In this document: piece by piece, positions 9,633 to 45,052 of the stretch
Layout: each line of letters begins with the position of its first letter
Numbering within the stretch: position 1 is the first letter of the stretch
NCBI RefSeq assembly: GCF_048403405.1
Contig: NZ_CP183129.1
Direction: 5' to 3' (one strand)
DNA length: 64,000 nucleotides
From: Escherichia coli
GTDB taxonomy: Bacteria; Pseudomonadota; Gammaproteobacteria; Enterobacterales; Enterobacteriaceae
Notes under the pieces: generated by a model
Seen by the model: only the letters and a program-made list of their open reading frames with translations
Databases searched by the model: none
What the model was told of the DNA's origin: nothing
Program-made: the position numbers and the translations under genes

Positions 9633-10645
9633 CTATCCAAAAAAATGGTCCCAGGCATTACCAGCCCACTCGATAAGTTTGTCTTTACCCTTACGGGTAA
9701 GCTCTTTGACAGGCTTTGGTAACGGAAAAGAATCAATAACGTCGTCGAGTATCCCGGAGATTACGCTGCCGAAGCCGTTTTTTGCTTCCGTCTTGACCTC
9801 TTCGGTTTTGAACTCATCCTTAAACTGCGAAGCCGTGCTACTTTTAGCCCGATCAGGCAAAGCCCGAATAATAGTCTCTACCAGACGAAGAATGTTGTAG
9901 CCCTCATCGGCGGAGACAGGTGTCACCGGATAGTGCGTAAAACCAAATCGTTCAGTAATGTAGGCTTCTTTCTTTTCGATGTTGATGCGCTGTGCAGGAG
10001 ATGGCTGATGCAGATGAGTATCCCACTCGCGGAATGGCTCAATTTTATCAACCTGGTTAAGGACGAATAAAACGCGCTCACCCCCACCAGCAGGGAGCAG
10101 AACATTGTTGTAGAAATGCTCATCCGCAGAAAAGGCCCGATCGTCACCTTTTATTACCCACAGGATGAGATCCAGGGAGGGAAGCAAATTGCGGTATAAA
10201 TCTTCATACTCCTATCCCGCCGGGCATTCTCACCGACACCAGGTATATCAATTATCTTCAGCGAATGTTTTCCGAAGCGTATATGCAATTCCTGAACTTC
10301 ACGAGTACATGCCTCAACGTCGCTAACTGCACAAACCTCCCCTTTAAACAGCGCATTACATACGCTGCTTTTCCCCGCGCCAGTTTTTCCCATGGCACCA
10401 ATCACGGGTTCATAGTCGATGGCTTCACTGATTTTGTTCAACAGCTTTTCCCGCAGTGGCTGAGGGAAAATATCAAGAATATCCCTGATGTCGGGTATGT
10501 GCGGTGTGCTATCACCTTTTTGCTCGTTGCTACCATTACGTTCTGGAAATATATTGCTCCACATTCCCAAAATCCCGCCTTCCCTTCTGGTGACGCCACT
10601 GGCATCAGTAATCATCCGGCCTTCGCCCTTTACCGGGTCATCCAT
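9633..10645 (-). pseudogene. YfjP/YeeP/YkfA-family GTPase, frameshifted
   Basis: Two ORFs (163 aa and 184 aa) together make one GTPase. It has the P-loop GKTGAGKSS, then IIDIPGVGEN. The frame is lost near 10205-10215, where reading ...ARRDRSMKIY should be ...EYEDLYRNLLPSLDLILWVIKGDD. The NQVDK G4 motif lies in the second ORF. Confidence 0.75.
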
Positions 10646-10684: not shown

Positions 10685-11368
10685 TTACTCTCTGAAGGTC
10701 TGAATTACGTCACTTATGAAACGAAAGTGAGGGAGGGCTGAAATAAACTCTTCACTGGCAGTCAGAGCATCAAGTTCAGGCTTTCTGCGGAAAGAGGTAT
10801 CCAGAACGGTTACGGCGTTAACGTCTTCCATCCGAAACACCTGTAAATTTCTGGTGCGGGTAGCAACAAGAAACCAGTTTTTGGACTGAAATATCAGACG
10901 GCGGGGAGCTACTGCTTCGTAGCTTTTACCGTTAACCAATAATGTAACGGCGCGGTAGTCGCGGATAGCTTCCGCCAGTTTCAGAAAACAGGCAGTCTGC
11001 GTGACGGGAGAAGATAATGCCCCATGCCCAATAAGACACGGCGATACGCCGGAATTGCTGGCAATCAACCGGATCAACTTGCGGTTCTGAGCCGGAATGA
11101 TTCCTGAAATTCCTGAATTACGTATAAACGCAAATGTATTGGGTAAGTGCTCCCGGCCTGTTTGGCGGATAAGTCGGTAACTTCCGCTGCGATGCTCAAG
11201 ATCCAGATGGATCAGGCGTTGCTGAAAATCCCGCTGTAGGGTGCGTTCTGAGACACCAAATTCATCAGCTAATACTTTAAGCTCCAGAGATTCACCAGCC
11301 AGTAAGCGGCTGATAATGACTGATAGCCTGACAGACAGGCGGTCATGATGATCATGCTGTGTTTTCAT
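10685..11368 (-). CDS. HTH plus WYL-domain transcriptional regulator (YfjR-like)
   Basis: I chose the start MKTQHDHHD (227 aa). The product has an N-terminal HTH (LKVLADEFGVSERTLQRDFQ) and a C-terminal WYL-type segment (RRLIFQSKNWFLVATRTRNLQVFRMEDV). The ORF track extends 24 codons further upstream. Confidence 0.65.
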   Translation of the reverse strand: MKTQHDHHDRLSVRLSVIISRLLAGESLELKVLADEFGVSERTLQRDFQQRLIHLDLEHRSGSYRLIRQTGREHLPNTFAFIRNSGISGIIPAQNRKLIRLIASNSGVSPCLIGHGALSSPVTQTACFLKLAEAIRDYRAVTLLVNGKSYEAVAPRRLIFQSKNWFLVATRTRNLQVFRMEDVNAVTVLDTSFRRKPELDALTASEEFISALPHFRFISDVIQTFRE

Positions 11369-12036
11369 AGTGGGGACAGTCCTGTTCTCCCAAAATATCA
11401 TGGTGTTGATACGGGAGATTATGCCGTACAGGTACGACACGTTATGTCGTACTAAAGGGGAGTTGATTGAAAAAATAGTGGGGTAACTGCAGTTATCTAA
11501 TACTCTGAAATATAAGTTAATTGATTAACTCTAAGGCAAGGTCATCATCACAGAAACGACACAACCTGTCGCGTTGCGCATTGTAAGAAAGAGGGTATCT
11601 GATGCGTACGAAAATGATTTAGTTCTGAAAATAGTTGCAAATGAATCAATACATTCTTATTTTTACAAAAAGTTGGAATGCATAAGCCAATTGACCATTA
11701 GCAATGACAAATCCTTCTAGCGCACTTCGTTGATTAAATATAGATTTAGGTATCCAATCTATTCACACATAACGATTTGCTCCGCTGAACTAACCGAGCA
11801 ACACTGCAAAAAAATATACCACGCCGACAATCAAGAAAAGTACTCACCAGTATAAAGTATCAAGTAAATCAATGCGATGTAGAATAAACACCGGCCCTTA
11901 ATGTGATAGGAATCACATTCCTTCAGCCCTGCATTCCGGCATAATCATATCGGAAGGTTAAACTGCTCACGCCATATCCCTTTTTAGGGGGATATCTATG
12001 AATACCGTTTCAATCCACTAATACATAAGGTAATAA

Positions 12037-12579
12037 ATGGACGCAGAGAAAATTCAGTCAGATATAGATGCTCTTTTGACATACATGAACGATGACATGG
12101 AGAATCTTGGTGAAACAATAAAAACCGTTACATTTGGATTCGAAACAGGCCAGAACGACCGCATTGCTATAGACGAGTTGCTTCACTGGCGGGAAGAGTA
12201 TTTGTTCAAAATCATCAATATTTGCCATTCCCGCTCTCTATTACGTAAGGACTTTGGAGATTTTGAGCATGTATCCTTGACAGAAGAGGGTCAGAGTCGT
12301 GCTATATCAATCAAACACGGAAAAAATCGCTCTTACGAGTTAGGGGCCAGCATGCAAATCGCAACGTTAAATGTTCATGGGCCTGCACAGGTTGGTAACG
12401 GTAATACGCAAAACATCCACAATGTATTTAATCAATTACTTCAGCAGATCGAGAAATCTTCCGCTTCTGATGAAGAAAAACAGGAAGCCAAAAAACGCCT
12501 GGCGAAATTTTTGGAACATCCTTTGGTTGGTTCTATTGTCGGCGGTCTTGCTGGTTCCCTTCCTGGTCTAATGGGATGA
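12037..12579 (+). CDS. Hypothetical protein (180 aa) with a C-terminal glycine-zipper-like hydrophobic tail
   Basis: AAGG lies about 9 nt upstream of the ATG. The C-terminus is LVGSIVGGLAGSLPGLMG. The central segment HGPAQVGNGNTQNIHNV is low complexity. The stop overlaps the next start (ATGA). Confidence 0.6.
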   Translation: MDAEKIQSDIDALLTYMNDDMENLGETIKTVTFGFETGQNDRIAIDELLHWREEYLFKIINICHSRSLLRKDFGDFEHVSLTEEGQSRAISIKHGKNRSYELGASMQIATLNVHGPAQVGNGNTQNIHNVFNQLLQQIEKSSASDEEKQEAKKRLAKFLEHPLVGSIVGGLAGSLPGLMG

Positions 12580-12848
12580 TGGAAGATCTTAAAAAAACGA
12601 TCCGACTGCGCTGTGCATTCTGCCGTTCGGAACAGTTCGCCTTACCTTACGAGGGTTACTCCCCCCCAAGTCATAGCTTTGTCGTTTGTGCCAACTGCGG
12701 GAGGGAAAACGACGTCACATCTCTGCTCATCGTTGCTAAATCGAAAGGGATGGAAATAGCTGAAGAGTATGCTGATGAACTAGTTGAACAGATGACGAAA
12801 GATCTGTTTAAAACTTTTAAAAACCGTAAATTCATAAAGATAAAGTAA
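12576..12848 (+). CDS. Small zinc-ribbon protein (90 aa)
   Basis: Two CxxC pairs are visible (CAFCRS ... CANCGRE). The gene is translationally coupled to the upstream ORF by a 4-nt ATGA overlap. Confidence 0.6.
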   Translation: MMEDLKKTIRLRCAFCRSEQFALPYEGYSPPSHSFVVCANCGRENDVTSLLIVAKSKGMEIAEEYADELVEQMTKDLFKTFKNRKFIKIK

Positions 12849-12875
12849 CTGTTACAAAAGTTACATGGAGGACAT

Positions 12876-13850
12876 ATGTCAAGGACTAAAGTACTTTTTG
12901 CTTATTGCCATGAGTTAGATCGGTGTTTATCGATTGATGAAGCAAGAACAGAATTCTTTTCAAAAAAACCGCAAGACAGACAACGATTCACTTTCTCCTG
13001 CAGCGATCGCAACTGCAATGTCACCATTAGTGGTGTTAATTACCATGTCAAAGCGGAAGATGGTGAAAAATTCAAAGTTGCACATTTTCGTTCTCCACAT
13101 CCCCATAATCTGGGATGTGAATGGATGCAGTTTTCTGAGGAAGCTAACCAGCCCCGTCAGGCTAGTGAAACAGAGGCTGACTACACAGAAAGAAAGGCAA
13201 GGCAGAAGCTAAATGATTTTATCAATTGCTTCGATCCTTGTACTGATGAGACAGATTCTGGGCAAAAAAAAACTGGACAACTTACATCACTTTCGCAGGT
13301 AAACCATCTCGCCAAAGACAATGATTTGTCTAACGATAAATCCCACAAGTGGAGCCGTTATACACGAACTAACCAGCTACAGCGCCTAGTAGACACCTGG
13401 CAGGAAGCCAAGAAAACTCTTACATACGACGAGTTCAGAACATTAAAACTAAGAGTCACAAACTACGGAAAGGTTTATTTCCATGAATACATAACGCATA
13501 TTCAGAAAGGGCTAAAAAACCAATATGAAGGCGTCATTTTCGGCGGTGGTTCTTTGGTTAAACGTTATGGTCGTGGCTTTCTCATTCACTTTTTCGATAA
13601 ACATAACGATAAACCAATTCGTCTGTATATCGATAAGAACCTTATGGAGAAAGGGCGATTCAGTCATTATATTGATGAAATATTATCAACAGAGAATGTG
13701 AGATATTTTCGTGTCTTTTTGTTAAACCCAGAAGTTTCCGAAAAAAAAGACCGAACTGGCAAGCCAGTTATCAACCTTGAGATATCAAGCCTGCGACAAT
13801 TGGCGATTTACTACGAACTCAACTCTTCTGAAGATAATGATTTTGTTTGA
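12876..13850 (+). CDS. Hypothetical protein (324 aa) with an N-terminal Cys/His cluster
   Basis: Strong RBS (GGAGG 5 nt upstream). The N-terminus carries C42-x4-C47 ... H70-x4-H75-x-H77-x3-C81 (FSCSDRNCNV...VAHFRSPHPHNLGC), then an acidic/polar linker, then a roughly 160-aa C-terminal domain. No family recognised. Confidence 0.65.
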   Translation: MSRTKVLFAYCHELDRCLSIDEARTEFFSKKPQDRQRFTFSCSDRNCNVTISGVNYHVKAEDGEKFKVAHFRSPHPHNLGCEWMQFSEEANQPRQASETEADYTERKARQKLNDFINCFDPCTDETDSGQKKTGQLTSLSQVNHLAKDNDLSNDKSHKWSRYTRTNQLQRLVDTWQEAKKTLTYDEFRTLKLRVTNYGKVYFHEYITHIQKGLKNQYEGVIFGGGSLVKRYGRGFLIHFFDKHNDKPIRLYIDKNLMEKGRFSHYIDEILSTENVRYFRVFLLNPEVSEKKDRTGKPVINLEISSLRQLAIYYELNSSEDNDFV

Positions 13851-13887
13851 CAGTAGCATGCTAAATTTATAAAAAGGAGAAGTATTT

Positions 13888-14181
13888 ATGGTCCCTGGAT
13901 ATGTATACATATTAATCAACACAAGCATGCCTGGTTTAATTAAAATAGGTCGAACGCTACGCGACTCACGCATGCGTGCGCGTGAACTCTTCTCCACCGG
14001 AGTGCCAACACCGTTTCAAGTTGCTTTTGAGCTGTTCGCTGAACAACATGAAGCTCTCGAGGCTACGGTACATAATGAATTGAATGATTTTCGAGCTAAT
14101 GTGGCACGCGAGTTTTTCCGCTACCCACTCGACAAGGCCGTTGCATTACTAATTCAGCTGCCCCCTCCAAAACGCCACTGA
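13888..14181 (+). CDS. T5orf172 / GIY-YIG-like (MUG113-type) domain protein (97 aa)
   Basis: GYVYILINTSMPGLIKIGRTLRDSRMRARELFSTGVPTPFQVAFELF...HNELNDFRANVAREFF is the T5orf172 domain pattern. AGGAG lies 8-9 nt upstream. The ORF may be the 5' half of a frameshifted longer gene. Confidence 0.7.
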   Translation: MVPGYVYILINTSMPGLIKIGRTLRDSRMRARELFSTGVPTPFQVAFELFAEQHEALEATVHNELNDFRANVAREFFRYPLDKAVALLIQLPPPKRH

Positions 14182-14188
14182 ACAGTAT

Positions 14189-14539
14189 GTGGCCGAAGAT
14201 ATAACACAACGGCTTAGAGAAAAATATCCTTTATATATACCTCCAGAAATTGTAGCGGTGAGGATTGTTCAAATGCCCGGAGGTGTCTGGCTAGAGATAA
14301 CGACTGAGAAAAAAATCGCTAGATACCTCGTAGATCAGATAATCCAACGAACAGATCTAGCATTCATTGTTGACACAGACGAGGCATTCTTTCGGTCAGA
14401 AGATGATGTCCGTTTAAATGCGAATAAACTGGTAAATGATTACGATATTTACTCTATCGTCATGACTACGGACCTCTTTCATGATTACGCCTGCCAACAA
14501 ATAACACGCGCGCATCATGCCCAGAGAAATTTCGTCTGA
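14189..14539 (+). CDS. Hypothetical 116-aa ORF (GTG start), possibly the detached C-terminal part of the T5orf172 gene
   Basis: It starts 8 nt after the T5orf172 stop, in the +1 frame, with no RBS. Its frame is open back to 14153, overlapping a C5 run at 14161-14165. Confidence 0.4.
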   Translation: MAEDITQRLREKYPLYIPPEIVAVRIVQMPGGVWLEITTEKKIARYLVDQIIQRTDLAFIVDTDEAFFRSEDDVRLNANKLVNDYDIYSIVMTTDLFHDYACQQITRAHHAQRNFV

Positions 14540-14586
14540 TGCAACAGGCGTAACGATACCCCAAATTCGTTACTCACAGTAATCCA

Positions 14587-15800
14587 TGTCCAGTTTGGGT
14601 GTAAATATCACGCATAATCGTGCCATTCATATTTAGAGATCATCCGGCATAATCAATCTGCCAACGAAGGAGATCGCTACGCGTAAAGCCCGTTTTACTG
14701 AGCATCAGATCATCGCTGTGATTAAGTCAGTTGAAGCCGGACGAACCGTTAAAAATGTCTGCCGGGAGGCCGGTATCTCTGAAGCCACCTACTACAACAG
14801 GAAGTCCAGATACGGCGGCATGGAAACTTCTGATATTAAAATCTTGAGGACGAAAACCGCCGTCTCAAACAGATGTTTGCTGACCTGAGTCTGGAGAGCC
14901 GAGCGCTGAAAGACGTTATCGAAAAAAAGCTTTAAAACCAGCCTTTAAGCGTGAGCTGGTCACTCATCTGATAACGACATTCGGACTCAGTATCAGTCAG
15001 GCCTGCCGGAGTCTGAACCTGAGCATAACGTTTACCGTTACCGCCCGGATACCACGCGTGATGAACCCGTTATTGCCGCCCTGTAGGCTGCGGCTGAGCG
15101 ATACCCACGATACGGCTTTCCGAAGCTTTTCCAGATTCTGCGACGGCAAGGATACTCGTGGAATCACAAAAGGCTCCACCGTATTTACTGTCTGCTGAAG
15201 CTGAATTTTCGCCGTAAGGGCCAGCAACGGCTGCCGGTACGCATCCCTCACCACTGGCTACGCCAGAAGCGCTGAACCAGTGATGGTCTGTCGATTTCAT
15301 GCATGATGCGCTGGCCTGTGGCCGTCATTTTCGCACGTTCAATGTTATTGATGACTTTAATCGTGAGGCGTTATCGATTGAAATCGATCTGAATCTGCCA
15401 TCTCTGCGGGTGGTCCGTGTACTTGACAGGATCGCGGCAAACCGCGCTTATCCGGTCATGCTGCGCATGGATAATGGTCCGGAATTTATCTCTCTGGCGC
15501 TGGCTGAATGGGCAGAGATACACGCAGTAAAACTGGAGTTCATCCAGCCGGGTAAGCCGACGCAGAACGCTTTCATTGAGCGTTTTAACAGGATATACCG
15601 TACAGAAATACTCGATTTTTATCTGTTCAGAACGCTGAATGAAGTACGGGAAATTACGGAGAAATGGTAATCAGAATATAACTGTGAACGCCCGCATGAA
15701 TCACTGAACAATATGACACCGGAGGAATACCGACTTCACAATTATTTGGCCGGGATCTCAAAAAATGCATGGAACTAAAACGGGTCTATTTACAGGGCCA
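14587..15800 (+). mobile_element. Decayed IS3-family insertion sequence (orfA/orfB remnants); boundaries approximate
   Basis: An orfA-like segment (KARFTEHQIIAVIKSVEAGRTVKNVCREAGISEATYYN) has no ATG and is then frameshifted. The orfB-like DDE/rve core is spread over more than one frame (AERYPRYGF...HKRLHRIYCLLKLNFRRKG...). There is an in-frame TGA at 15281-15283, then FMHDALACGRHFRTFNVIDDFNREALSIEIDLNLP...PGKPTQNAFIERFNRIYRTEIL, then ...ERPHESLNNMTPEEY after another break. Terminal inverted repeats not confidently found. Confidence 0.75.
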
Positions 15801-16091: not shown

Positions 16092-18167
16092 TTAATTCAC
16101 ACCCAGCGCCTTATAAACCGCATCAACCGGGTCTGAGTAAAAACTCACCTGAAACTTGGTAAATAACTCTGCCGGAACCGTTGGAATATCCATAGCCGAG
16201 GACATCGGCAACAGAACCCGTTTTGCGCCGCTGTCGAAGGCGAGCTGTAAACTGGCGGCAAGATCCTGCACCGGGTTAATTACTCCACCAAGGGTCATAC
16301 TGCCCAACACCACCATCTGTTCCTGCACCGGCTTTGCCAGCAATATCGAACATAAAGCGATAAGCGCAGCAAGACTGGTTGCGGTGCTAGGGCCAGTATT
16401 ATGCAGTTCAACGACATGAAGGTGATATTCATGATCAGAGAATTTCGCTGCCGCGCTTACCCGATTCAAATTGCCTTTGAAGTAATCGAAACCGACGCGG
16501 ATAGCTTCTTTCGCGGAGGTATTTGAACCCAGGCCCGATACACTATGCTTACCATTACCGGCAGTCATCTGCGTTTCAAAACGATACAGCCCGGTCATAC
16601 CGCTTTCTGCCTGAGTGACCAAATGCACAACGCCCGGCTTTGGCATTCCGGCAGGAATTAGTTCGCTGCCGCCCTGTTCCGGTACGCTTACAAAAAACTC
16701 TTCCAGCGTTTCGTTATCGATGTAGCTAAAGTTCACATCGAAGAACTCCAGGCCGCCCAGTTTTTTAAGTTGCTCTTTCACTCGACGACGAACTTCCATC
16801 GCATAGGTCAGGCAGACTCGTACATCTTCTTTGCTGTACGCGCCATCGGGATGCATGAGTTTTAACAACCCCGACACTGTACGTCGAACAGCAATCACGT
16901 CACGCTGATTGAGGTTATTTCCCAGCTTGAAGAATTTATCAATTGCATCGGAGAAGCTACGTTTACGCATCTCGCGCATGTATTCAGCGAGATAATCCGT
17001 AATCAAACCATAGCGATTGGTGAAAAATTCCGGGCGCATCTTAGGAATTTCCCAACCAGGAATATAGGCATGGAAGCGGTCAAAAAATGCAGTATCAATC
17101 ATCGCATCCGGGAACGGTGCTAGCAGATGGCTGGTTTTGACCAGTGTATCTACGCTCTGATTGATGTTGCCAACAAACACCATGGAGGCTTTGCCTTCAA
17201 TGGAGTCCCGACCACGAGAGAATGAGCCTGATGCCATGTAATCCTTCATGATCTGCACGCCATCTTTGTCTTTGAAGGTGATCCCTGCCACTTCATCAAA
17301 CGCGACGACGTCCCACATTCCCACAAGACCAATCTGCCGGCTGGCCATGTTGTAAAACAAGTTCGCCACCGTGGTTTGCCCGCCAGATACCAGCAGGGAG
17401 TTAGGAGAGCACTCTTTATAAACATGACTCTTACCTGTACCACGTGGACCAAGCTCGCAGACGTTATAGTTGTTTTCCACAAAGGGAATCATGCGAGTAA
17501 TCAGATGCCACTTGGTACGCTGCTCAATATTTGCAGGTTCCATCCCGACCGAACGTAACAGCACATCAATCCACTGGTCGCGATCAAACTGCTTGCGGGC
17601 TTCAAATACCTCGTCCATATCCATATTTGGCATCTGGATCGGCTTCAGTGTGAACAGCGAGAAAGGAGACGTTTTTTGCCCCTCTTCATAAAAGTAGTTC
17701 ACGGTGATCATGCACCAGATGCCACCAGTCAGCAGTTTCTCGTTGTCTTTCACCATCTGCGACGGCACCAGGGCATCTTTAATGCCAAGGTTAGAGAGCT
17801 GGGCTTCGTAAACGTCTTTCTTCTGATTTAGCTTTACCGTGACCTTATCGATAATCTTGTAAGAACCACGCTCGCGAATTAGTGATTTCACTTTTTCTGC
17901 TTCATCCGGGCGGACGTAGTTATCAGAAAGAATACGCTTAACCGACTGTAGCCCCTGCTCGACAACCTCATCGTCATCGGAGGCACAGTACATACCGAGT
18001 AGATATTCCAGTACGTAAACCGGAACATTCGCCCCTTCTTTAAGTTGCTTAGTCAGATCCTTACGCACCACGCGACCGCGAAAGTGCTGATTCAACAATG
18101 AATCCAGGTCCTGAGCCAACACAGAGGCCGTTTCCATGTTACTGGCTGAGTTATCCTGCTGTTGCAT
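16092..18167 (-). CDS. brxL: BREX protein BrxL (Lon-like protease/AAA+ domain)
   Basis: 691 aa. Walker A GPRGTGKSH and a C-terminal Lon-protease-like region. It is the last gene of the canonical type 1 BREX order. Confidence 0.9.
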   Translation of the reverse strand: MQQQDNSASNMETASVLAQDLDSLLNQHFRGRVVRKDLTKQLKEGANVPVYVLEYLLGMYCASDDDEVVEQGLQSVKRILSDNYVRPDEAEKVKSLIRERGSYKIIDKVTVKLNQKKDVYEAQLSNLGIKDALVPSQMVKDNEKLLTGGIWCMITVNYFYEEGQKTSPFSLFTLKPIQMPNMDMDEVFEARKQFDRDQWIDVLLRSVGMEPANIEQRTKWHLITRMIPFVENNYNVCELGPRGTGKSHVYKECSPNSLLVSGGQTTVANLFYNMASRQIGLVGMWDVVAFDEVAGITFKDKDGVQIMKDYMASGSFSRGRDSIEGKASMVFVGNINQSVDTLVKTSHLLAPFPDAMIDTAFFDRFHAYIPGWEIPKMRPEFFTNRYGLITDYLAEYMREMRKRSFSDAIDKFFKLGNNLNQRDVIAVRRTVSGLLKLMHPDGAYSKEDVRVCLTYAMEVRRRVKEQLKKLGGLEFFDVNFSYIDNETLEEFFVSVPEQGGSELIPAGMPKPGVVHLVTQAESGMTGLYRFETQMTAGNGKHSVSGLGSNTSAKEAIRVGFDYFKGNLNRVSAAAKFSDHEYHLHVVELHNTGPSTATSLAALIALCSILLAKPVQEQMVVLGSMTLGGVINPVQDLAASLQLAFDSGAKRVLLPMSSAMDIPTVPAELFTKFQVSFYSDPVDAVYKALGVN

Positions 18168-18177
18168 AACGCCTCAC

Positions 18178-20775
18178 TTAAAAGAAGTCATCCTGAAATG
18201 CCAGGTCGATCGTGATCGGGTAGCGACCATACTCTGTTGCGCTGTCCGCATTCTCCAGGATAAGAACATACTTGTTTTTACGATTGAATGCCGTCCCCAT
18301 GAGTTTCATGGTTACATCGCGGGTGCGTTTACCCATATCTTCGTTATCACTGTCGAAGCATACTGTTTCCGTGCCGGAGACGACCTGGTTGTTTTCATCG
18401 ACGATAAAGATATTCAGCGTGCGCGGCTCATTTAAATCATTCACTGCCGAAGTCTGAATAAAACCAATTTTATCAATGCTGTTAACCAGTTTGATCACCT
18501 GATCCCGCGCAACGACGGGCACGGGCTGCCGCTGGGGTTGCTTCTCAGCCGCTTTCTTTTCAAGCGCGCGAATCTTCAACACAGGAACACACACTTCCTG
18601 CAGCATGGCTCCGCCATGAACGAAACGAGCACCCCCTACGAAGTGGAAACGCTGTACTCCTTTGGGTAACAGGAATTCACTTTCATCGCTTGCGCCTGCA
18701 GTATCAGCCAGTTTGCCGTGCCAGCAAAATTCACTTTCAGGCAGTTGATGGCCTACAATAAAACGCTTATTCGCTTCAATCGTGTCTTTGGCTTTACTTT
18801 CCAGCTTCGTTTTATCCTGCTCCACCAGCGCTTGTTGTTGGAACAGGAAGCCGTGATCGGCGGTAACAAAAATTCGGCTGGCATTAAATCGGCTACGCAG
18901 GCGTGAAACCAGATCTTTTAGCTCAGTGATTGCACTTCGGCAGGCCTCAAACGTTTTATCTTCCGTTGCAGCCTTATCACCCATGGCATCTATAGTGTCG
19001 TGCCAGATATAAACTACGGAAGCGTTGCGGATTTGCTCGTTCACTTCCTGGTTATTGGCGTTCTGCAAGTCCTTTGCTTTCAGCGCTACACCATTCACCT
19101 TCGCAAGAATAGCGGCTCTTTTTTCAAACCCGGAAGTGGACATCCCATCGGCGTATACTACACCAGAATTATCAGGAAGATAGCTCAACGACTCATGAGG
19201 CAACAGTGCGGCCATGCCCAGTTGGGTATAGCTTGGGAGCACTCCGGTCTGGGAGCGCAGCTCTGCACTGAAGTGCTTCTCATAGTTGATATGCCTGCCC
19301 AGCTCTTCCGCCACTTCGTAGCGCAATGCATCCGAGATCACGACAAAAACACGTTTGACCTGCGAGGTGTCAAACTGACGTTTAACATTCTCTTTATAGA
19401 AATTGCGCTGCAGGGGTATGCCGCTAAACTGCCAGGCCTGCATACGGTTTTCCGCTTCCAGCAGTTTGTTCCAGCCGCGACTTAGTTCAGTCAGATACCA
19501 ATTGCTGTATAACTCTTCGATGAATTTATCCAGTTCATGCAGGATCATCGCCCCTTTGCTGTGCACTGGTGCAGCATATTCATTGAACAAACGATAGGTC
19601 TGATCGAAGCGATAAATTTCGTCACAATAGGCCTTCCAGAACGCACCTGTATCGGGGAAATTAAACCCGTCGGTGTAACGGTTACGCAAATTCAGCAAGC
19701 GTTCTGCCTGACGAATAGCATTCCAGATAGAAAGATACTCTGGGCGGGTTTGGCTCCAGTATTTCGCACTGCGCTCTGAAACCAACGCTTTAAACGCATC
19801 TCTGTCCAGAGTGGTGCTCTCTTCCTGCAACTGTGTCACCAGACCACGGATAATAAGTTGCTCAATAGCCTCGAAGGTTTCACATTTTGCCAGTGTATAT
19901 GGTGAGCTGTAGTTGTAGTGTTCTTTTGGCTGGAGCGTCTGCTGCAAATCCTCTGCACAGTAATCGTATTCTACTTTATAGCGACGATCGTTGCGCCACG
20001 CCCCCATAAAGGCCAGTGACGAGGCCCGACCAGCCGCGGTAGCCAGCACATTTTTACTCAACCAGTCACGATGTGCTTCATCACCCTGCGCCCAGAGATC
20101 GGTACAGAACAGTTTCAGAAGCAGATTTTCCATTGAAGGAGATTCAGACTGGTATCCCAACTCAAGGCGAAGAATTTCCCAAAGTACCTCATCCAGGCCA
20201 AGCTTCGTCAGTACGGCGAAAGTGTTCTCGAGTGCGCTATCATCTTGCTGCCGTGCTGCGACAAACTGCTGAACCAAAGCAAATAGTATTTCTTTGGTTT
20301 CGAAGGTACTGGCCCCGACCACCACCGCCAGCATTTTCTTATCGAGAGAGTTTTCCGTTTCGCGCTCGGTGACCCATCCCTTCAGGATCTGAGTTCGCTT
20401 AACGGTAAAGAAGGCTTTGCGAAGCTGAATATGTTCGCGTAAACCGAGTTGCGGGATACCCAGAGAATTCAGGGTGATCGCCGCATAATCAGCGTGGAAT
20501 TCGGTACTATAGAGGCGGATATCCAGCAACCAGTCCTGCTCGCGAGCAGGAACCTCACAGGTGAAATAGAGTAAAAATTTCTGCTCAGGCTCGTCGATTT
20601 CGAGTCGTTTTTTTGTTGCGAGCACAGAAACGCCACGCATATCCAGCAGCGTGACATTGTCGAGATCCAGCTCATTAATTGAATCAGTGAAGCGTTGTTC
20701 CGGGTCGTGCCAGAAGACGATACGGTTGTCGGTAAACTTCTGACGAAGCCCTGATTCCAGTTCTTTAAATTGCAT
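18178..20775 (-). CDS. pglZ: BREX protein PglZ (alkaline-phosphatase-superfamily)
   Basis: 865 aa. The N-terminus (FTDNRIVFWHDPEQRF) and the central PglZ-type region (VVISDALRYE...TADHGF) are visible. It sits between the embedded pair and brxL. Confidence 0.9.
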   Translation of the reverse strand: MQFKELESGLRQKFTDNRIVFWHDPEQRFTDSINELDLDNVTLLDMRGVSVLATKKRLEIDEPEQKFLLYFTCEVPAREQDWLLDIRLYSTEFHADYAAITLNSLGIPQLGLREHIQLRKAFFTVKRTQILKGWVTERETENSLDKKMLAVVVGASTFETKEILFALVQQFVAARQQDDSALENTFAVLTKLGLDEVLWEILRLELGYQSESPSMENLLLKLFCTDLWAQGDEAHRDWLSKNVLATAAGRASSLAFMGAWRNDRRYKVEYDYCAEDLQQTLQPKEHYNYSSPYTLAKCETFEAIEQLIIRGLVTQLQEESTTLDRDAFKALVSERSAKYWSQTRPEYLSIWNAIRQAERLLNLRNRYTDGFNFPDTGAFWKAYCDEIYRFDQTYRLFNEYAAPVHSKGAMILHELDKFIEELYSNWYLTELSRGWNKLLEAENRMQAWQFSGIPLQRNFYKENVKRQFDTSQVKRVFVVISDALRYEVAEELGRHINYEKHFSAELRSQTGVLPSYTQLGMAALLPHESLSYLPDNSGVVYADGMSTSGFEKRAAILAKVNGVALKAKDLQNANNQEVNEQIRNASVVYIWHDTIDAMGDKAATEDKTFEACRSAITELKDLVSRLRSRFNASRIFVTADHGFLFQQQALVEQDKTKLESKAKDTIEANKRFIVGHQLPESEFCWHGKLADTAGASDESEFLLPKGVQRFHFVGGARFVHGGAMLQEVCVPVLKIRALEKKAAEKQPQRQPVPVVARDQVIKLVNSIDKIGFIQTSAVNDLNEPRTLNIFIVDENNQVVSGTETVCFDSDNEDMGKRTRDVTMKLMGTAFNRKNKYVLILENADSATEYGRYPITIDLAFQDDFF

Positions 20776-21344
20776 TATTGATTCTCAAACCATTCGACCA
20801 GTTCATGAGCGCTAGGGCAAGCAGGGTGTCTGGCAGAACTCTGAATATCAAAACCGTGATGCGTTACCATTCTCCTGGCAAATGCGGTTTTAGAACTTCC
20901 CGGTCCCTGTTTTCCTAGCTCGCGTGAAATTACTTTTAAACGATCCCATGGCATTTCAGTTGTAGCTTCAGGTAACTCTTCATTAAATGTGTCTACTTTA
21001 AGCCATTTTTTCATTGCCTCTGAATCGGCAAGAAACCAAGCCTCAACTGCTTTGACTGCGATAAACGAGATGTCGACATCTTGATGGGCAATTCGGGCCC
21101 GTACATCAGCAACAGATGCCGCATCTTCCAGGTCGGTCAGAATACAGATCCGTTCAGCACCTACATTTCTGAGCCTAGCAACGAAATTATCAACATACTT
21201 CGGTAACAGGTTACCACCACCTTTGGCATCAATAACGGGAGTTACCAATTCAAAATTATTCGTGCGCAGAAATGCAATGAACGCTGGTGAATTCACGATG
21301 ATTGACTCAGTATCACCTTCAACGATAAAACCTATTTTTACCAT
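20775..21344 (-). CDS. Small TOPRIM-like protein (DUF4276/DUF4435/RloB class), partner of the upstream ATPase
   Basis: 189 aa. Candidate TOPRIM residues are visible: IGFIVEGDTE (conserved Glu) and ICILTDLED (DxD-like). The start overlaps the ATPase stop (ATGGTAA) and the stop overlaps the pglZ start (TAATG). Confidence 0.6.
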   Translation of the reverse strand: MVKIGFIVEGDTESIIVNSPAFIAFLRTNNFELVTPVIDAKGGGNLLPKYVDNFVARLRNVGAERICILTDLEDAASVADVRARIAHQDVDISFIAVKAVEAWFLADSEAMKKWLKVDTFNEELPEATTEMPWDRLKVISRELGKQGPGSSKTAFARRMVTHHGFDIQSSARHPACPSAHELVEWFENQ

Positions 21345-22459
21345 GGCAAACCGCCATCAAACATATTCATCAGCCACGCGGTATCCAGTGGGATTTCCTT
21401 TTTATCAACCCCCGCATCTGAAGCATGCATCAGCTGAGTTTTCCCCTCTTTTTTACTAACAAACCACAGTTCGTCTGGTTCCAGATTGCGAACAATAGAT
21501 TCACTATGGGTAGTAATAACAATTGGATGATTCAAAGAGGCATTTTCACGCATCAATTGCACAAGTTCCCCAATGGCTTTTGGGTGAATACCGCGTTCAG
21601 GCTCTTCAATAATGGTCATCCCCGTTTGCTGTGCTCGACTCAAGATGGCCGTCATAATACAAAGCGTGAAGATGGTGCCGTCAGAGATAAGATGGGCAGG
21701 AAAGCGGGCACGAGTTCCCTGTTCTTTAAAGGTCAATACCGTTGAGCCATCCAATTTTTGTTTCTCGGTCGATACATTTTCCATCCCCGGAACGATGAGT
21801 TCCATCCACTCCAGTATTTGCTCTTTAAATTCGCTATTCGATTCGAGAGCAGCAAGCACAGAAGCAATGTTTCGACCATGACTGTCCAGAAATGTCGAGT
21901 CAGTTTTGGCGCTATCGGGCTCTTTAGCACGTAACGGATCGATGCGAAAAACAACAATATTGGTCAAAAAAGCGTACAGTTCACTTTTCCCCAGTAGCAT
22001 TAGTGCCGTCATATCTGACGAGTAGTTAGGGATTAAAGTCGCAGGGATTTCATCACTATCGCTCAGGCGAATCATAAGAGTATCAGGGTGCTTACGATCA
22101 ATATAAATATCTCCATCAATGACCAACTTTTCAGTGATTGTTGGTTTTTTATCCATGTTTTTGATCGTCAAGTCATAGGTAAACTGTTTTCCTCCCAGCT
22201 CAATTTGAAGGTGCAGTGAAGCCGTAGTCCGATTTTCCTTACGCAGCTTGTAGCAATGAATCTGCTGAAAACCGCCAAAATCACGGATTGCTTGTGTCGC
22301 CCCGGTTTTCACTACGGCACCAAAAAAAGCCAATGCATCGGTAATGTTACTTTTGCCCGCACCATTGGCTCCAGCAAAGGTGATAAATGGTGGGCTTTCC
22401 ACAAGGGAAAGCTCCGCGATGCTCTTGTAGCCTTTAATAATCAGGGGATGTTGATCCAT
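21338..22459 (-). CDS. ABC-type (AAA_15/AAA_21-like, OLD/RloA/AriA-class) ATPase
   Basis: 373 aa. Walker A GANGAGKSN, an SDG signature-like motif, Walker B MTIIEEPERGIHP and His-loop VITTHS. The start overlaps the pglX stop (TAATG). Confidence 0.8.
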   Translation of the reverse strand: MDQHPLIIKGYKSIAELSLVESPPFITFAGANGAGKSNITDALAFFGAVVKTGATQAIRDFGGFQQIHCYKLRKENRTTASLHLQIELGGKQFTYDLTIKNMDKKPTITEKLVIDGDIYIDRKHPDTLMIRLSDSDEIPATLIPNYSSDMTALMLLGKSELYAFLTNIVVFRIDPLRAKEPDSAKTDSTFLDSHGRNIASVLAALESNSEFKEQILEWMELIVPGMENVSTEKQKLDGSTVLTFKEQGTRARFPAHLISDGTIFTLCIMTAILSRAQQTGMTIIEEPERGIHPKAIGELVQLMRENASLNHPIVITTHSESIVRNLEPDELWFVSKKEGKTQLMHASDAGVDKKEIPLDTAWLMNMFDGGLPW

Positions 22460-25400
22460 TATGCCTCCTGTGGCGCACTGCCGGTGATCGCCTTGACATC
22501 CGCCAGCAGATCGCCAAATTTGCCGTAGTTAACCTTAACGCCGTCATCCAGATCAATAGTGATACGTCTATCAGCATAGTGACGCAAGCGATCGTCAAAA
22601 TTGCGCAGCTCGTTGAATTTTTTAGTCAACCCATCCAGCTCTTTTTTCAGGCGTGTGGTGGCAGCGCCCGATTCTGCATTTTTAAGCTGATCGTTAACAA
22701 GATCGATATTTCCCTGGTAGCGTGCCAGCAGCGGAACTACATATTCGGTACGCATACGTGACAATGTGCCTTCATTATAACGGTGCAGATACACCAGGCA
22801 CTCAAACGCCTTCTCTTTACCTGAGCTGAATAGCCAGTAAATTGGGCGCTTCTTGTACATCTTCATATGATCTTTCCAGAACTGGGTGGAAAGATAGCGA
22901 CGGATGGTATCCAGCGAAGACTCGCCTTTTTTCGGCTTGATTGCGTACAAGCAGAGGCTTTCGGCGATGAAATCGAGGTTTTCTTGTAAATGTTCTTCGC
23001 CCCAGACTGTGCGAACGAACTCTTTAACGCGGGAGGTAACATCGTCATCGAACCAGTCAGAATCCATTAATGGCAGGATACCATCTTCATCGGCAGGGAA
23101 GGTTTGGTAGGCGCCTTCATCTACTAATTCAGAAAAGCCTTTGTTACCTTCGTGGGCGTAGACCAAGCCTTCGCGATCAAGGGAATAGCGGCCCATCATG
23201 CAGCCAATAGCCAGGCTAAGTGAGTTTATAACCTGAATCGCCTTAAATTGGTTATATTCATCTTTTGAAATTGAGCTTAATGACTGGAAAACATTATTTT
23301 CCAATGTTATTTCTGCCAAGGCAAGATTGTTTTCGTTTAAAATATTGCATTTTTCATAAAATATTTTGTTATTATCACATTCTAGCTCATGTGTTTTGAT
23401 TAACTTTTGATAAAAAACTTCAGTCTGGTTTTTTAATATGTTTACTAGGCTGCCGTTTTGAAACGCATCCTGATTGAAGGAAAACTGATAACTATTTTCC
23501 TGCTGACTCCAATTTTCTTTAGCCAGAGAAATTAGTTCAGCAGTGTTCAAGGATAGGCTCTCAATCATTTTCTCATCAAAAAATGCTGGTAATTTACTTA
23601 TATCCCCCGGTTGATAATTTAATGTTGGAGAGATAGCCTTTATTAAAGAGATAATAATATCACTATTAATAAATGCTAACACAGGCAGGTAAAGGTCTTC
23701 ATTATTAACAAATAACGAAGACCCTGCATTGTCAAATAATGAGGACTCTGAGACTCTTGCAGATGTCTTGCTTGAGGAAAGAGCGTTCCATGTAATCCCT
23801 TTTTTAAATATAAAATCTAAATTATAGTTATGCGAACGTACCTTTCCTGATTTTTCATCGGTAAAATTTTGAATTTCCCGACCATCGTCGAACCAATTTA
23901 CGACATAATCAAGATTACCGTACCACTTTCTATATTCACCACCTTTCTGATAAGGGAACCATTTCAGACCGGATTTTTTAGCTTGAATACGATCAGTAAA
24001 ATCAAAACCGATATTCGCGAAATTAACTTCATGCCAAAAACGTAAAAAACGCTCATTATCCGCTGTTGCCATTCCAAGGCGTGTTGAGGCAATTTGAGAT
24101 ATTTTTTTATTATCAAATAAATTAACCTCACTTTCGCTGAGCCAATACGCAATCGGTGCACCGGGGATTTTTTGGAAGTCATCGGCAGCGGCAGTCTTTA
24201 AACGATCGTTTTTAACCGGAAATTCTTTTGGATATCCTTCATCATTGATATCGTCATTCTCAGTATAAGAGAATGCCCCTTGATAAGAAGGAATGTGAAC
24301 ATTTCTAAACACTGTTGCATTGGTACCAAAGGCAATTTTCATAACGCCATTGCCCATATGTACCATCGTCTCAATAGTGTATTTATCCAATATATTCGCA
24401 CGCATATTTTCATAGCTAGACAAAAACATCCATGATTGCATAGTCACCATTGAGTTGTACGCAGCATCTTTGAGCCAGGAAAAACCCCGCTCAATAAACA
24501 TCGCAAACAAATCTGACTTACTGTCCGGGAATTGTTTCTTAGCGAACTCTTTCAGTTCACCGTTCATCCCTTTCCCACCCATATACGGCGGGTTCGCCAC
24601 AACCGCATCGTAACGCTGCGCCAAAATCCACGCCTGCTGAATATACGGAATCAGCTCTGCTGCCGCTTCTTTCTGCGGGATATCACCCTCGACAGCCAGA
24701 CGATATAGTCCACCCAGGAATGTCTTCAGCGCCGTTTCATCTTCCTGCGGCACCTGAATCAGTGATCCCAGCGTTTTTGCACTAGTGAACAAAGCCAGAG
24801 TACGCATCAGTAGCTTATATTCCGCGCTGTCGGTATTGGCCAGTGACGTCCCTTGGGTAAACATATCTCCCATGCTGCCGCGTTGCGCCTGCTGATGAAA
24901 GTTCAGCTTGGTCCACAGTTCAGCGATATCCAGTTTACTTTCCTGCAGCGAAACGATATTCAGGCGAACGCCACGGCCCAGAATACGACGATCGTCCTGA
25001 CGGGCAAGCATCAGCATCGCAAAACCGGAAAGCTGCGCCGCACGGTCATCAATATCTAGGCCGAAAATATTGTTTTCCAGAATCAGCTGCGGAATGTCAC
25101 GGGTACGGTAGCCACGCTCTTCGTAAATGGCCTTCAGCACGTTATAGGCTTCGGTCAGGATATGCCCGGAGCCGCAGGCCGGGTCCAGCACCTTAATACT
25201 TTCTGGTTCAATGCTTGATGGGGTAATAGCCGCCAGCTGTGCCTGCACTTCCGGCGTTTGTTCCGCTGGCTCAATGTAGTACGGCATTTTGCCTTTCAGG
25301 CTGGAGTCCGGATAGGTTTGCAGCCACTGGCGGCCCACCGAGTTCTGCACCAGATACTGCACAATCCAGTTCGGAGTAAACAGCTGGGTAGCGGCAGGAA

Positions 25401-26112
25401 TATCTTCGCTCTTCACCACCTTGCCGATCACATCATCTTTTTTCTCGGAAATATAAAACTGATACAACCAGCCGATCACTTCGACCTGTTTCCAGTCTTC
25501 TTCAGGAATCGTGTCCACCAGCCCGCGCAGAATAGAGTCGGTGCGAGTCAGGTTATCCGGCAATACCAGTTCGATATCATCATTGACTGCTTCGAACAGG
25601 AAAGGCATAGCGCCGTGCAGCGCATGGCACTGTGCAAGCAATAGTTCACGGTACAGCTCTTCGTCACGATCGCCCGCCAGCTTCATCTCCACCAGGCGTG
25701 ATTTGTCCAGCCCAAGTGCATCAGCCACTTCCGGCACATGATCCAGAACCTCAAAACTCCCTTCCAGGGTCGGGTGAGACAGCATACGGAAACCGTGATC
25801 AAGATAGCCATGCAGCTCCATATAGCGAATAGCGCAAAAGCGGTTAAACCAGGTGTAAGCGATGTGCTCCACCAGCACGTCATAGCCCTGCTTTTCTGCA
25901 CGCTTGACCAGACGTTCACGGCGTGAAGCCAGTGATTTATCCAGCGAGAACTGACCATATCGCACACTGTCGCCAAGATCGGTTGCTTGCGCTATTTGCA
26001 GGTTGCCTTTTTTATCGGCGTCAATACCCAGCGTGGTCAGTTTTTGCATGACCGCATCGCGGAACTGTTTACGTGCCACCGGGGCGTATTTTTTGATATT
26101 TGACGTATTCAT
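22459..26112 (-). CDS. pglX: BREX N6-adenine DNA methyltransferase PglX
   Basis: 1217 aa. SAM-binding VLDPACGSGHIL and catalytic VVANPPYMG motifs are visible. Canonical position after brxC. Confidence 0.9.
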   Translation of the reverse strand: MNTSNIKKYAPVARKQFRDAVMQKLTTLGIDADKKGNLQIAQATDLGDSVRYGQFSLDKSLASRRERLVKRAEKQGYDVLVEHIAYTWFNRFCAIRYMELHGYLDHGFRMLSHPTLEGSFEVLDHVPEVADALGLDKSRLVEMKLAGDRDEELYRELLLAQCHALHGAMPFLFEAVNDDIELVLPDNLTRTDSILRGLVDTIPEEDWKQVEVIGWLYQFYISEKKDDVIGKVVKSEDIPAATQLFTPNWIVQYLVQNSVGRQWLQTYPDSSLKGKMPYYIEPAEQTPEVQAQLAAITPSSIEPESIKVLDPACGSGHILTEAYNVLKAIYEERGYRTRDIPQLILENNIFGLDIDDRAAQLSGFAMLMLARQDDRRILGRGVRLNIVSLQESKLDIAELWTKLNFHQQAQRGSMGDMFTQGTSLANTDSAEYKLLMRTLALFTSAKTLGSLIQVPQEDETALKTFLGGLYRLAVEGDIPQKEAAAELIPYIQQAWILAQRYDAVVANPPYMGGKGMNGELKEFAKKQFPDSKSDLFAMFIERGFSWLKDAAYNSMVTMQSWMFLSSYENMRANILDKYTIETMVHMGNGVMKIAFGTNATVFRNVHIPSYQGAFSYTENDDINDEGYPKEFPVKNDRLKTAAADDFQKIPGAPIAYWLSESEVNLFDNKKISQIASTRLGMATADNERFLRFWHEVNFANIGFDFTDRIQAKKSGLKWFPYQKGGEYRKWYGNLDYVVNWFDDGREIQNFTDEKSGKVRSHNYNLDFIFKKGITWNALSSSKTSARVSESSLFDNAGSSLFVNNEDLYLPVLAFINSDIIISLIKAISPTLNYQPGDISKLPAFFDEKMIESLSLNTAELISLAKENWSQQENSYQFSFNQDAFQNGSLVNILKNQTEVFYQKLIKTHELECDNNKIFYEKCNILNENNLALAEITLENNVFQSLSSISKDEYNQFKAIQVINSLSLAIGCMMGRYSLDREGLVYAHEGNKGFSELVDEGAYQTFPADEDGILPLMDSDWFDDDVTSRVKEFVRTVWGEEHLQENLDFIAESLCLYAIKPKKGESSLDTIRRYLSTQFWKDHMKMYKKRPIYWLFSSGKEKAFECLVYLHRYNEGTLSRMRTEYVVPLLARYQGNIDLVNDQLKNAESGAATTRLKKELDGLTKKFNELRNFDDRLRHYADRRITIDLDDGVKVNYGKFGDLLADVKAITGSAPQEA

Positions 26113-26127
26113 ATGAAGTCCTGAAAA

Positions 26128-26146
26128 GGGCAGACAATGTCTGCCC
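26128..26146 (-). promoter_or_regulatory. Stem-loop in the 48-nt brxC-pglX spacer
   Basis: gggcagac-aat-gtctgccc (8-bp stem). On the mRNA strand it is followed by UUUUCAGG and then the pglX start region. It could be a weak attenuator or an RNA-stability/processing element. Confidence 0.35.
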
Positions 26147-26160
26147 TGAAAATGGGGAAA

Positions 26161-29775: not shown

Positions 29776-29787
29776 TGCTGTCGTCTT

Positions 29788-33042: not shown

Positions 33043-33127
33043 TGGTGCCGAAGGCCGGACTCGAACCGGCACGTATTTCTACGGTTGATTTTGAATCAAC
33101 TGCGTCTACCGATTTCGCCACTTCGGC
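33043..33127 (-). tRNA. leuX: tRNA-Leu (anticodon CAA)
   Basis: The reverse complement reads GCCGAAGTGGCGAAATCGGTAGACGCAGTTGATTCAAAATCAACCGTAGAAATACGTGCCGGTTCGAGTCCGGCCTTCGGCACCA. It has a cloverleaf with a long variable arm, a CAA anticodon in the loop TTCAAAA and an encoded CCA. Confidence 0.95.

Positions 33128-43537: not shown

Positions 43538-45052
<1,515 letters not shown>

Follow-up and report, generated by a model that had tools for sequence, protein, structure and literature searches.

The question raised by this locus is what two overlapping short genes, ORF1 and ORF2, do together in a 64,000-nucleotide stretch of Escherichia coli DNA (contig NZ_CP183129.1; the whole stretch is called the window below), given that in the identical region of strain 4621 both are annotated as 'hypothetical protein'. 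As judged from their sequence relatives and the surroundings of these, we propose that the pair probably has a function in defence, and we tentatively offer the more specific model of a phage-defence module made up of two uncharacterised genes, which would probably act by abortive infection. A preliminary description made from the letters of this DNA had named an effector and its regulator among the possible relationships, and this is the most plausible reading of the pair. On comparative grounds both open reading frames (ORFs) are to be regarded as real genes, because each has around 100 or more homologue clusters (109 for ORF1 and 90 for ORF2, counted at 90% identity, all unnamed and without Pfam domains) and because the pair recurs across unrelated phyla. 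The ATGA overlap between the genes and the CAFC...CANC cysteines of ORF2 are as first described, coordinates and sequence being in agreement: the ORF1 TGA (12577-12579) shares bases with the ORF2 ATG (12576-12578), an alternative in-frame ATG at 12579 giving a TGATG overlap instead, and the cysteines form C13-x2-C16 (CAFC, 13-16) and C38-x2-C41 (CANC, 38-41). The C-terminus of ORF1 reads ...LEHPLVGSIVGGLAGSLPGLMG, and HGPAQVGNGNTQNIHNV corresponds to its residues 114-130.

The pair behaves as a conserved, translationally coupled unit whose order and tight junction recur in unrelated phyla. In a scan of one genome per species, full-length ORF1 relatives were found in Enterobacterales, Pseudomonas, Aeromonas, Methylotenera, Victivallales, Desulfovibrionaceae and Geothermobacter, and further in Planctomycetota, Deferribacteraceae, Treponema, Myxococcota and Chlorobium, the pair itself ranging from Gammaproteobacteria to Planctomycetota, Spirochaetota and Chlorobiota. 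Homologues do occur as adjacent pairs in other genomes, a matter that the preliminary description had left to be checked: the gene after each distant ORF1 homologue (33-42% identity) encodes a CxxC...CxxC protein of 80-90 aa, the partner called at 74 aa in one fetched locus (L002) having had its start called too late. Among intact winged-helix ORF1 loci the zinc-ribbon gene lies directly downstream in all but one Desulfovibrio/Mailhella clade, in which the 169-aa homologues (L028 7995-8504, L029 6395-6904 and L026 908-1417) have no zinc-ribbon partner. Most junctions in the loci read are overlaps of 1-4 nt or gaps of 1-2 nt (TGATG, TAATG, ATGA), the widest being the gap of ~17-50 nt in L002. 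Fusions of ORF1 with ORF2, sought as a Rosetta stone, were not found, the longer matches being mis-called starts or a frameshift artefact, and in phage and plasmid collections matches to the pair or its module were limited to one temperate phage and one IncF plasmid.

The preliminary description was made without genomic context, and it is this context, the leuX island with BREX-1 here and type I restriction-modification (R-M) operons elsewhere, that points to phage defence. In unrelated genomes the pair repeatedly has known defence genes around it: 9 of 14 independent non-gammaproteobacterial loci place it within a type I R-M operon, with hsdM on one side and hsdS/hsdR on the other, and the cargo co-embedded in such operons comprises RhuM, Bro-N, Schlafen AlbA_2/Fic-like, DUF3644, PIN_12, TIR, KAP NTPase, AAA_15/21 and DUF2188 proteins. 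It adjoins a type IIG MmeI-like enzyme and a Schlafen protein in L024, and P2-type baseplate and tail genes in L021, which is probably a prophage; on the IncF plasmid it lies near KlcA in opposite orientation. In L028 and L029 the gene stands between a UvrD/PD-(D/E)XK protein and an N6_N4 DNA methylase, with an 881-aa ORF next in L028, surroundings that are probably a type III-like R-M cluster. The neighbours of the pair differ completely between loci. In E. coli the pair is located in an island at tRNA-Leu(CAA) leuX, 3.2 kb from BREX-1 and adjoining a T5orf172/PDC-S57 gene; its occurrence there is sporadic, since of 5426 complete E. coli genomes 34 match a 3.1-kb query (window 11500-14600) and 25 have 80% or more of it, and the 3.1 kb around the pair are 100% identical in several E. 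coli chromosomes.

The architecture of ORF1 suggests how such a protein might act. An AlphaFold2 (AF2) model built on a 25-sequence alignment, with a mean predicted local distance difference test (pLDDT) score of 77, gives the N-terminal domain a winged helix-turn-helix fold that is nearest to the MarR, PadR and DtxR repressors; unlike such regulators, the domain is acidic, with a net charge of -9 in ORF1 and a negative charge in 25 of 25 aligned members (mean -6.3), and no named helix-turn-helix family was matched by ORF1 in Pfam or NCBIfam. The central segment that follows, previously taken for an unusual low-complexity linker, is instead the most conserved element and the signature of the family, Q118, G120 and N123 being three of the 17 invariant columns in the family alignment, to which I108 also belongs. 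The pLDDT falls below 50 at residues 97-120 and reaches 84-89 at residues 131-160, within the helical hairpin, where K152 is invariant in 36 module sequences (as K53 of alignment A2); at the hinge P162 and L163 are invariant and H161 is kept in at least 90%. The glycine-zipper tail has proved to be a conserved feature of the family rather than a peculiarity of this gene: ORF1 has a perfect G165-x3-G169-x3-G173-x3-G177 zipper, and the 217 distinct family tails, with a mean length of 18.8 aa and 20% Gly, lack any charged residue in 157 cases, show small-x3-small-x3-small in 175 and GxxxG in 153. For a transmembrane helix this tail is of marginal hydrophobicity, its Kyte-Doolittle mean being 1.29 over 19 aa against a classical threshold of ~1.6; the family tails have a mean of 1.28, and 32 of the 217 reach 1.6. 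Searches with ORF1 in Pfam, NCBIfam, PHROGs and PADLOC returned sub-threshold or unnamed matches only. Its matches phrog_16834/5789 are both function-unknown, two function-unknown PHROGs overlap the module, and matches to DUF1542, GroEL and DegS were discarded as sub-threshold and compositional; a PDB sequence search with ORF1 and with the next gene, ORF3, found nothing meaningful.

Residues ~100-180 of ORF1 are a module of their own, which closes many proteins with unrelated N-termini, hundreds of which end in it. An exhaustive profile search of 1.84 billion representatives returned 742 proteins at E<=1e-3, with 314 at E<=1e-10, and the 145 new representatives within the 150 best matches divide into 88 with both parts, 51 with the module only and 6 with the N-domain only; in these the module always ends at most 11 residues from the protein C-terminus. 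The N-termini fused to it include a beta-rich domain of ~100 aa and several helical domains of 160-210 aa without a Pfam match, an FkbH_N-containing protein also ends in the module, and some proteins consist of the module alone (72-76 aa). Because the module stays C-terminal while the N-terminal domains vary, we infer a shared output that is joined to different inputs. The winged helix is itself found elsewhere, at residues 164-256 of a 1446-aa metagenomic KAP-family P-loop NTPase protein (P0344), a conflict-system-like architecture that appears to reuse the putative sensor domain. The sole matching phage among 50,697 records, temperate Cronobacter phage ENT39118 (NC_019934.1), encodes in gp16 (YP_007238143.1; L065 4992-5486) a stand-alone protein with the RHIM-like motif and a Gly tail; the gene runs on the opposite strand, with the Q antiterminator on one side and HicB/holin/endolysin genes on the other, which is a classic moron position. 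Five members of A2 matched Pfam T4_RIIA1 weakly and below threshold (best 0.009).

It is in the relatives of this module that a resemblance to RHIM becomes visible. In a sister subfamily the motif reads ...T-I-N-I-S-N-S-Q-G-I-Q-I-G-D-H-N-T-Q-N-I, and proteins of this subfamily pass Pfam RHIM (PF12721) with 21.3, 20.1 and 21.7 bits, the gathering cut-off being 20 bits. Within A2, the alignment of 36 module sequences from both subfamilies, 13 match Pfam RHIM at E<=10 (best 2.1e-5). When the 36-module profile was compared with 177,635 distinct PDB sequences, the two best matches were RIPK1 RHIM fibril peptides (9m6m and 8ib0, E = 0.034), in which itinasgpiQiGdhNtQN is aligned with YTIFNSSGIQIGNHNYMD, and the lower-ranked matches comprised more RIPK1 chains and a viral ribonucleotide reductase-like RHIM protein. 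The resemblance is reciprocal, the Pfam model matching the family and the family profile matching RIPK1, and the invariant Q-phi-G-x-x-N of the family coincides with the RHIM core. ORF1 is linked to RHIM because its whole module is homologous to that of the RHIM-positive sister subfamily (tblastn 7e-17 over residues 108-179; profile E 1e-15 to 1e-23), and its central segment is the homologue of the RHIM-positive motif rather than a linker. Its own core reads G-P-A-Q-V-G-N-G-N: it contains the Q, the G and the N(+5), all three of them invariant, with Ala occupying the first hydrophobic position of the tetrad and the Gly ahead of it displaced by one residue.

ORF2 was modelled by AF2 with a mean pLDDT of 88.6 as a zinc ribbon (residues 10-46) and one long helix (47-82), and C13, C16, C38 and C41 are invariant in its family. 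It matches PADLOC PDC-M14A at 4.4e-9, with a coverage limited to positions 13-99 of the 152-position profile, and a distant homologue does so at 1.3e-5; it also matches NCBIfam ECs_2282 CxxC at 1.6e-5, under the cut-off of that model; an alignment search with ORF2 relatives, in which longer PDC-M14A-like relatives were sought, gave 242 matches, of which the 120 listed were all 80-98 aa. ORF2 accompanies the winged-helix subfamily only and not the tail module. Since ORF2 follows the winged helix, and since in the gammaproteobacterial set the two carry opposite charges (-6.3 for the N-domain versus +4.8, the mean for the basic ORF2 helix), a direct contact between the N-domain of ORF1 and ORF2 would be the most economical arrangement.

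We propose a model in which ORF1 would work as a chain of sensor, switch and effector. The acidic winged helix would form the regulatory or sensing end and the part that works with ORF2, while ORF2, made in step with ORF1 through coupled translation, would hold ORF1 soluble and inactive or, as an alternative role, would detect a phage cue. Once triggered, the Q-x-G-x-x-N beta-motif would drive self-assembly, with the helical hairpin and the glycine-zipper tail as the output; the tails of clustered ORF1 copies would insert into or perturb the inner membrane, and the infected cell would be stopped. The parts of this model differ in strength. Membrane perturbation driven by ORF1 oligomerisation is a reasonable but far from secure possibility, and an assembly that takes the form of a RHIM-like amyloid is attractive but doubtful. 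The most extended version, in which the module would be a prokaryotic single-chain counterpart of RHIM cell-death signalling, a triggered, nucleated cross-beta assembly would align the glycine-zipper tails into a membrane lesion, the various N-domains, among them the acidic winged helix with its zinc-ribbon partner, would be sensors and the pair would guard type I R-M, firing when a phage disables restriction in the manner of PrrC with EcoprrI, we consider unlikely.

Several observations weigh against this model, and most concern the motif. Neither whole ORF1 nor its module alone matched Pfam RHIM at E<=0.1 or at E<=10, a motif profile from the winged-helix subfamily alone found nothing in the PDB, and the RIPK1 match at E = 0.034 is borderline. 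RHIM, BASS3 and PP have G-phi-Q-phi-G in common (10.1101/2020.01.06.895854), from which the G-P-A-Q-V-G of ORF1 departs, and a short N/Q/G-rich motif such as RHIM could arise by convergence. AF2 makes motif residues 121-127 helical. Known amyloid-signalling gene pairs (BASS/FASS, an effector with an NLR or TGP) are defined by one motif that two adjacent proteins share; no second motif-bearing protein in cis was found in the 64 kb, neither ORF2 nor ORF3 having the motif, and a six-frame reading of the window shows [IVLA]Q[IVL]G..N once, in ORF1. Furthermore, the hydrophobicity of the tail is marginal, ORF1 has no match in PADLOC, and around stand-alone module proteins resolvases, integrases and transposases predominate, which are genes of mobile elements rather than clear defence genes. 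A rival explanation is that the RHIM likeness is coincidental, the module being an ordinary oligomerisation segment beside a tail anchor in a membrane-associated accessory of mobile elements whose role has nothing to do with regulated cell death, for example one in superinfection exclusion at the envelope. The failure of ORF1's own subfamily in both direct RHIM tests, the shortness and compositional simplicity of RHIM, the absence of beta structure from the AF2 model and the generic mobile DNA around the stand-alone subfamily speak for it; however, over very distant phyla Q, G and N never vary and keep the spacing of the RHIM core, the matches run in both directions and the R-M-embedded context is typical of defence cargo, and we regard a coincidence as distinctly unlikely. 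That the module is instead a homotypic adaptor of EAD or BASS type, docking ORF1 on a motif-bearing partner encoded elsewhere (STAND, KAP or TGP-type) so that ORF1 forms an arm of some larger signalling system and is not self-sufficient, would accommodate the usual need for two motif-bearing proteins (10.1101/2020.01.06.895854), the ORF1-type winged helix within the 1446-aa KAP NTPase protein, and weak matches to Pfam EAD10 (effector-associated domain 10) that extend over the motif as well as the first helix (0.0038 and 0.43; A2 members/P0298). The EAD10 scores lie under the cut-off, though, the window holds no second motif, the fetched loci show no recurrent large partner and the module is always C-terminal and always accompanied by the tail, all of which makes an adaptor highly improbable.

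The remaining explanations take the pair as something other than a defence system. It could be a toxin-antitoxin or addiction module in which ORF1 is a small membrane-depolarising toxin whose tail zipper does the damage and ORF2 its cognate antitoxin, produced in stoichiometric amounts, the unit stabilising an island or plasmid and any effect on phage being secondary; the tight coupling of two genes on mobile DNA (the leuX island, the IncF plasmid and integrase-adjacent sites), the conserved glycine-zipper tail and the charge complementarity between the ORF1 N-domain and the ORF2 helix are all compatible with this. A tail toxin held by a zinc-ribbon antitoxin, the arrangement to which the preliminary description had leaned, nevertheless fits poorly, because ORF2 tracks the winged-helix N-domain and not the tail, and a zinc-ribbon gene lies downstream in 0 of 24 single-gene loci of module proteins with other N-domains. 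The putative toxic module must then be self-restrained in many partnerless proteins; the Desulfovibrio-clade homologues are likewise without ORF2, no toxin-antitoxin family was matched in Pfam, NCBIfam or PADLOC, and the known small membrane toxins are simpler than ORF1; we think an addiction module quite unlikely. A regulatory or accessory pair for the neighbouring R-M or BREX genes, composed of a membrane-tethered winged-helix regulator and a zinc-ribbon co-regulator that would control or scaffold these systems, and having no killing output, would draw on the nearness of the fold to MarR, PadR and DtxR, on the frequent nucleic-acid binding of zinc ribbons, on the embedding in type I R-M operons and on the position of the pair in E. 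coli, where it opens a same-strand cluster without a plus-strand terminator up to the GIY-YIG gene. Such a role is very unlikely all the same: a DNA-binding regulator would not typically have an N-domain that is acidic in every aligned member, the C-terminal module is also joined to N-domains that do not bind DNA, neighbours that change completely from locus to locus offer no constant regulatory target, and a conserved beta-motif and hydrophobic tail have no obvious role in a repressor.

The E. coli island contains further genes around the pair (Table 1). Upstream, on the opposite strand, lie a WYL regulator and a frameshifted GTPase; downstream follow ORF3, a short T5orf172/GIY-YIG gene (PADLOC candidate PDC-S57), an IS3 remnant and a complete BREX-1 system. 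ORF3 falls into no family of Pfam, NCBIfam or PHROGs, and in PADLOC it has just a weak match to REase_II (9.4e-4). It lies 3' of the pair solely in E. coli and Rahnella victoriana (82% identity, L010:8840-9799), and it was rejected as a third component, other loci having unrelated genes or none at this place. The WYL regulator was rejected as a dedicated partner, being common only with one Enterobacter locus. The 97-aa T5orf172 ORF and the 116-aa ORF after it are either a split gene or a two-gene unit. A simple scan for promoters and terminators around the pair gave no informative sites. The leuX island also holds, besides BREX, a CbtA/YeeU toxin-antitoxin system, AbiEii, RadC and DUF932. Between pglZ and pglX are two extra genes, for a 189-aa hypothetical protein and a 373-aa AAA ATPase (20775-21344 and 21338-22459), which may be a system embedded in BREX.

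Table 1. Features of the window by position, with loci of other genomes in the last row.
Feature	Position	Strand	Remarks
ORF1	12037-12579	+	180 aa: winged-helix domain, conserved beta-motif, helical hairpin, glycine-zipper tail
Acidic winged-helix domain, ORF1 residues 1-95	12037-12321	+	Conserved LTEEGQSR at 81-88
Conserved motif MQIATLNVHGPAQVGNGNTQNI, ORF1 residues 106-127	12352-12417	+	RHIM-related by homology; core A-Q-V-G-N-G-N at 12385-12405
Two helices (121-140, 145-160), ORF1 residues 121-160	12397-12516	+	Ends in F-L-E-H-P-L hinge
Uncharged glycine-zipper tail PLVGSIVGGLAGSLPGLMG, ORF1 residues 162-180	12520-12576	+	G-x3-G run at residues 165-177
ATGA stop/start overlap, translational coupling	12576-12579	+	From sequence
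ORF2	12576-12848	+	90 aa: four-Cys zinc ribbon and single long helix
ORF2 zinc ribbon, Cys residues 13-41	12612-12698	+	
ORF2 long helix, residues 47-82	12714-12821	+	
ORF3	12876-13850	+	324 aa; start 27 nt past ORF2
T5orf172/GIY-YIG ORF, 97 aa	13888-14181	+	PDC-S57 2.5e-28, profile positions 5-91 of 212 only
116-aa ORF, other frame	14189-14539	+	Weak HEPN_STY4199 match (0.031)
YeeP/LeoA-like GTPase, split by frameshift into 184-aa and 163-aa ORFs	9633-10645	-	
WYL-domain regulator	10685-11440	-	Divergent from ORF1; 596-nt intergenic region
isrN small RNA, in IS3 remnant region	14934-15075	-	Rfam gathering-level match
BREX-1 cluster (brxL, pglZ, pglX, brxC...)	16092-31007	-	
tRNA-Leu(CAA) leuX	33043-33127	-	Probably one end of island with the pair
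Ysr276	44099-44293	-	Rfam gathering-level match
Magnesium riboswitch	61692-61807	-	Rfam gathering-level match
Type I R-M-embedded loci	L003-5, L020, L022, L025, L030, L056, L057-60, L061-62, L063-64		

To our knowledge, amyloid-controlled cell death has so far been recognised in animals, fungi, filamentous bacteria and one E. coli system (Bab/Agp). If the motif assembles like RHIM, ordinary unicellular bacteria would have to be added to these. Functional amyloids of RHIM type would then be widespread among them, in 742 or more clusters at 50% identity, and would be self-contained without an NLR partner; the question whether RHIM originated in prokaryotes would also be touched. The combination of an internal motif in a single protein with a C-terminal glycine-zipper output would likewise be a new architecture, and it could serve as a simple, genetically tractable model for membrane effectors gated by nucleation. 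Should the pair protect against phage, it would be a compact (270 codons) and widespread addition to the defence repertoire and would account for cargo without a name that recurs in type I R-M operons. The family and its reusable C-terminal module are in any case new, being without name or function in Pfam, NCBIfam, PHROGs and PADLOC, of which PADLOC covers the ORF2-like part only (PDC-M14A). In the literature searched we found no description of the ORF1/ORF2 family, of a RHIM-type motif in Proteobacterial defence genes or of PDC-M14, and a search for novel systems embedded in R-M operons did not turn up the family either. Dyrka et al. noted 24 bacterial RHIM-annotated Pfam proteins and analysed only the ten with a Bell domain; the remaining ones may belong partly to the sister subfamily.

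The pair can be compared with several known systems. Among defence candidates, PADLOC PDC-M14 is approached through ORF2, which resembles the PDC-M14A component; the partner gene would differ, since ORF1 matches no model in that collection. With the glycine-zipper proteins and small membrane toxins (Pfam Gly-zipper families; CdzC/CdzD, PMC5380434) ORF1 shares the (G/A/S)-x3 repeat and the uncharged segment of ~19 aa, but only 1 of the 36 module sequences gave a weak match to Rick_17kDa_Anti (0.021), and ORF1 has neither a signal peptide nor a second transmembrane segment, its tail being the minor part of a larger regulated protein. In location there are other parallels. Abortive-infection genes are embedded in type I R-M operons in the case of PrrC in EcoprrI, RloC and the AbiL-type ATPases, and these occupy the same niche between hsdM and hsdS/hsdR, which suggests by analogy a second-line or guard role for the embedded pair; ORF1 and ORF2 differ from them in having no nuclease or ATPase domain and in a predicted output at the membrane rather than on tRNA, and the E. 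coli pair lies beside BREX and not inside a type I operon.

The motif itself is best compared with the metazoan and viral RHIM (PF12721; RIPK1, RIPK3, ZBP1, TRIF and M45/ICP6), in which both the Q-phi-G-x-x-N core and the flanks match (T-I-N-I-S-N-S-Q-G-I-Q-I-G-D-H-N versus Y-T-I-F-N-S-S-G-I-Q-I-G-N-H-N). Outside these ~20 residues the proteins differ, ORF1 itself falls short of the model, and on these data homology and convergence are inseparable. The BASS3/Bell-NLR pairs of filamentous bacteria and the fungal PP/HET-S-type systems (10.1101/2020.01.06.895854) have the RHIM-related G-phi-Q-phi-G core seen in the sister subfamily, couple their motif to a predicted membrane-targeting helical domain and can have adjacent genes that overlap by 4 bp. 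They differ in that their domain order is the reverse of that in ORF1, whose core is G-P-A-Q-V-G, and in that the pair described here has neither a paired motif nor an NLR/STAND partner, no NLR recurring in related loci; the hosts are furthermore unicellular Proteobacteria and many other phyla here, as opposed to Actinobacteria and Cyanobacteria there. Among experimentally characterised systems the closest precedent is Bab/Agp (BASS11) of E. coli ECOR25, an amyloid-signalling abortive-infection system (bioRxiv 10.1101/2024.11.07.622273). Its motif family, BASS11, contrasts with the Q-phi-G-x-x-N of our family, its motif is C-terminal and its hydrophobic helix N-terminal whereas ORF1 has an internal motif and its hydrophobic segment at the extreme C-terminus, and its place of partner is taken here by a 90-aa zinc ribbon without the motif. 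Bab/Agp is nevertheless like our pair in consisting of two adjacent genes in an E. coli defence island, like ORF1 in that one small protein combines a short motif of amyloid type with a helical domain whose hydrophobic segment would target the membrane, and the same in its proposed logic, by which assembly of the motif would activate the membrane effector and lead to cell death.

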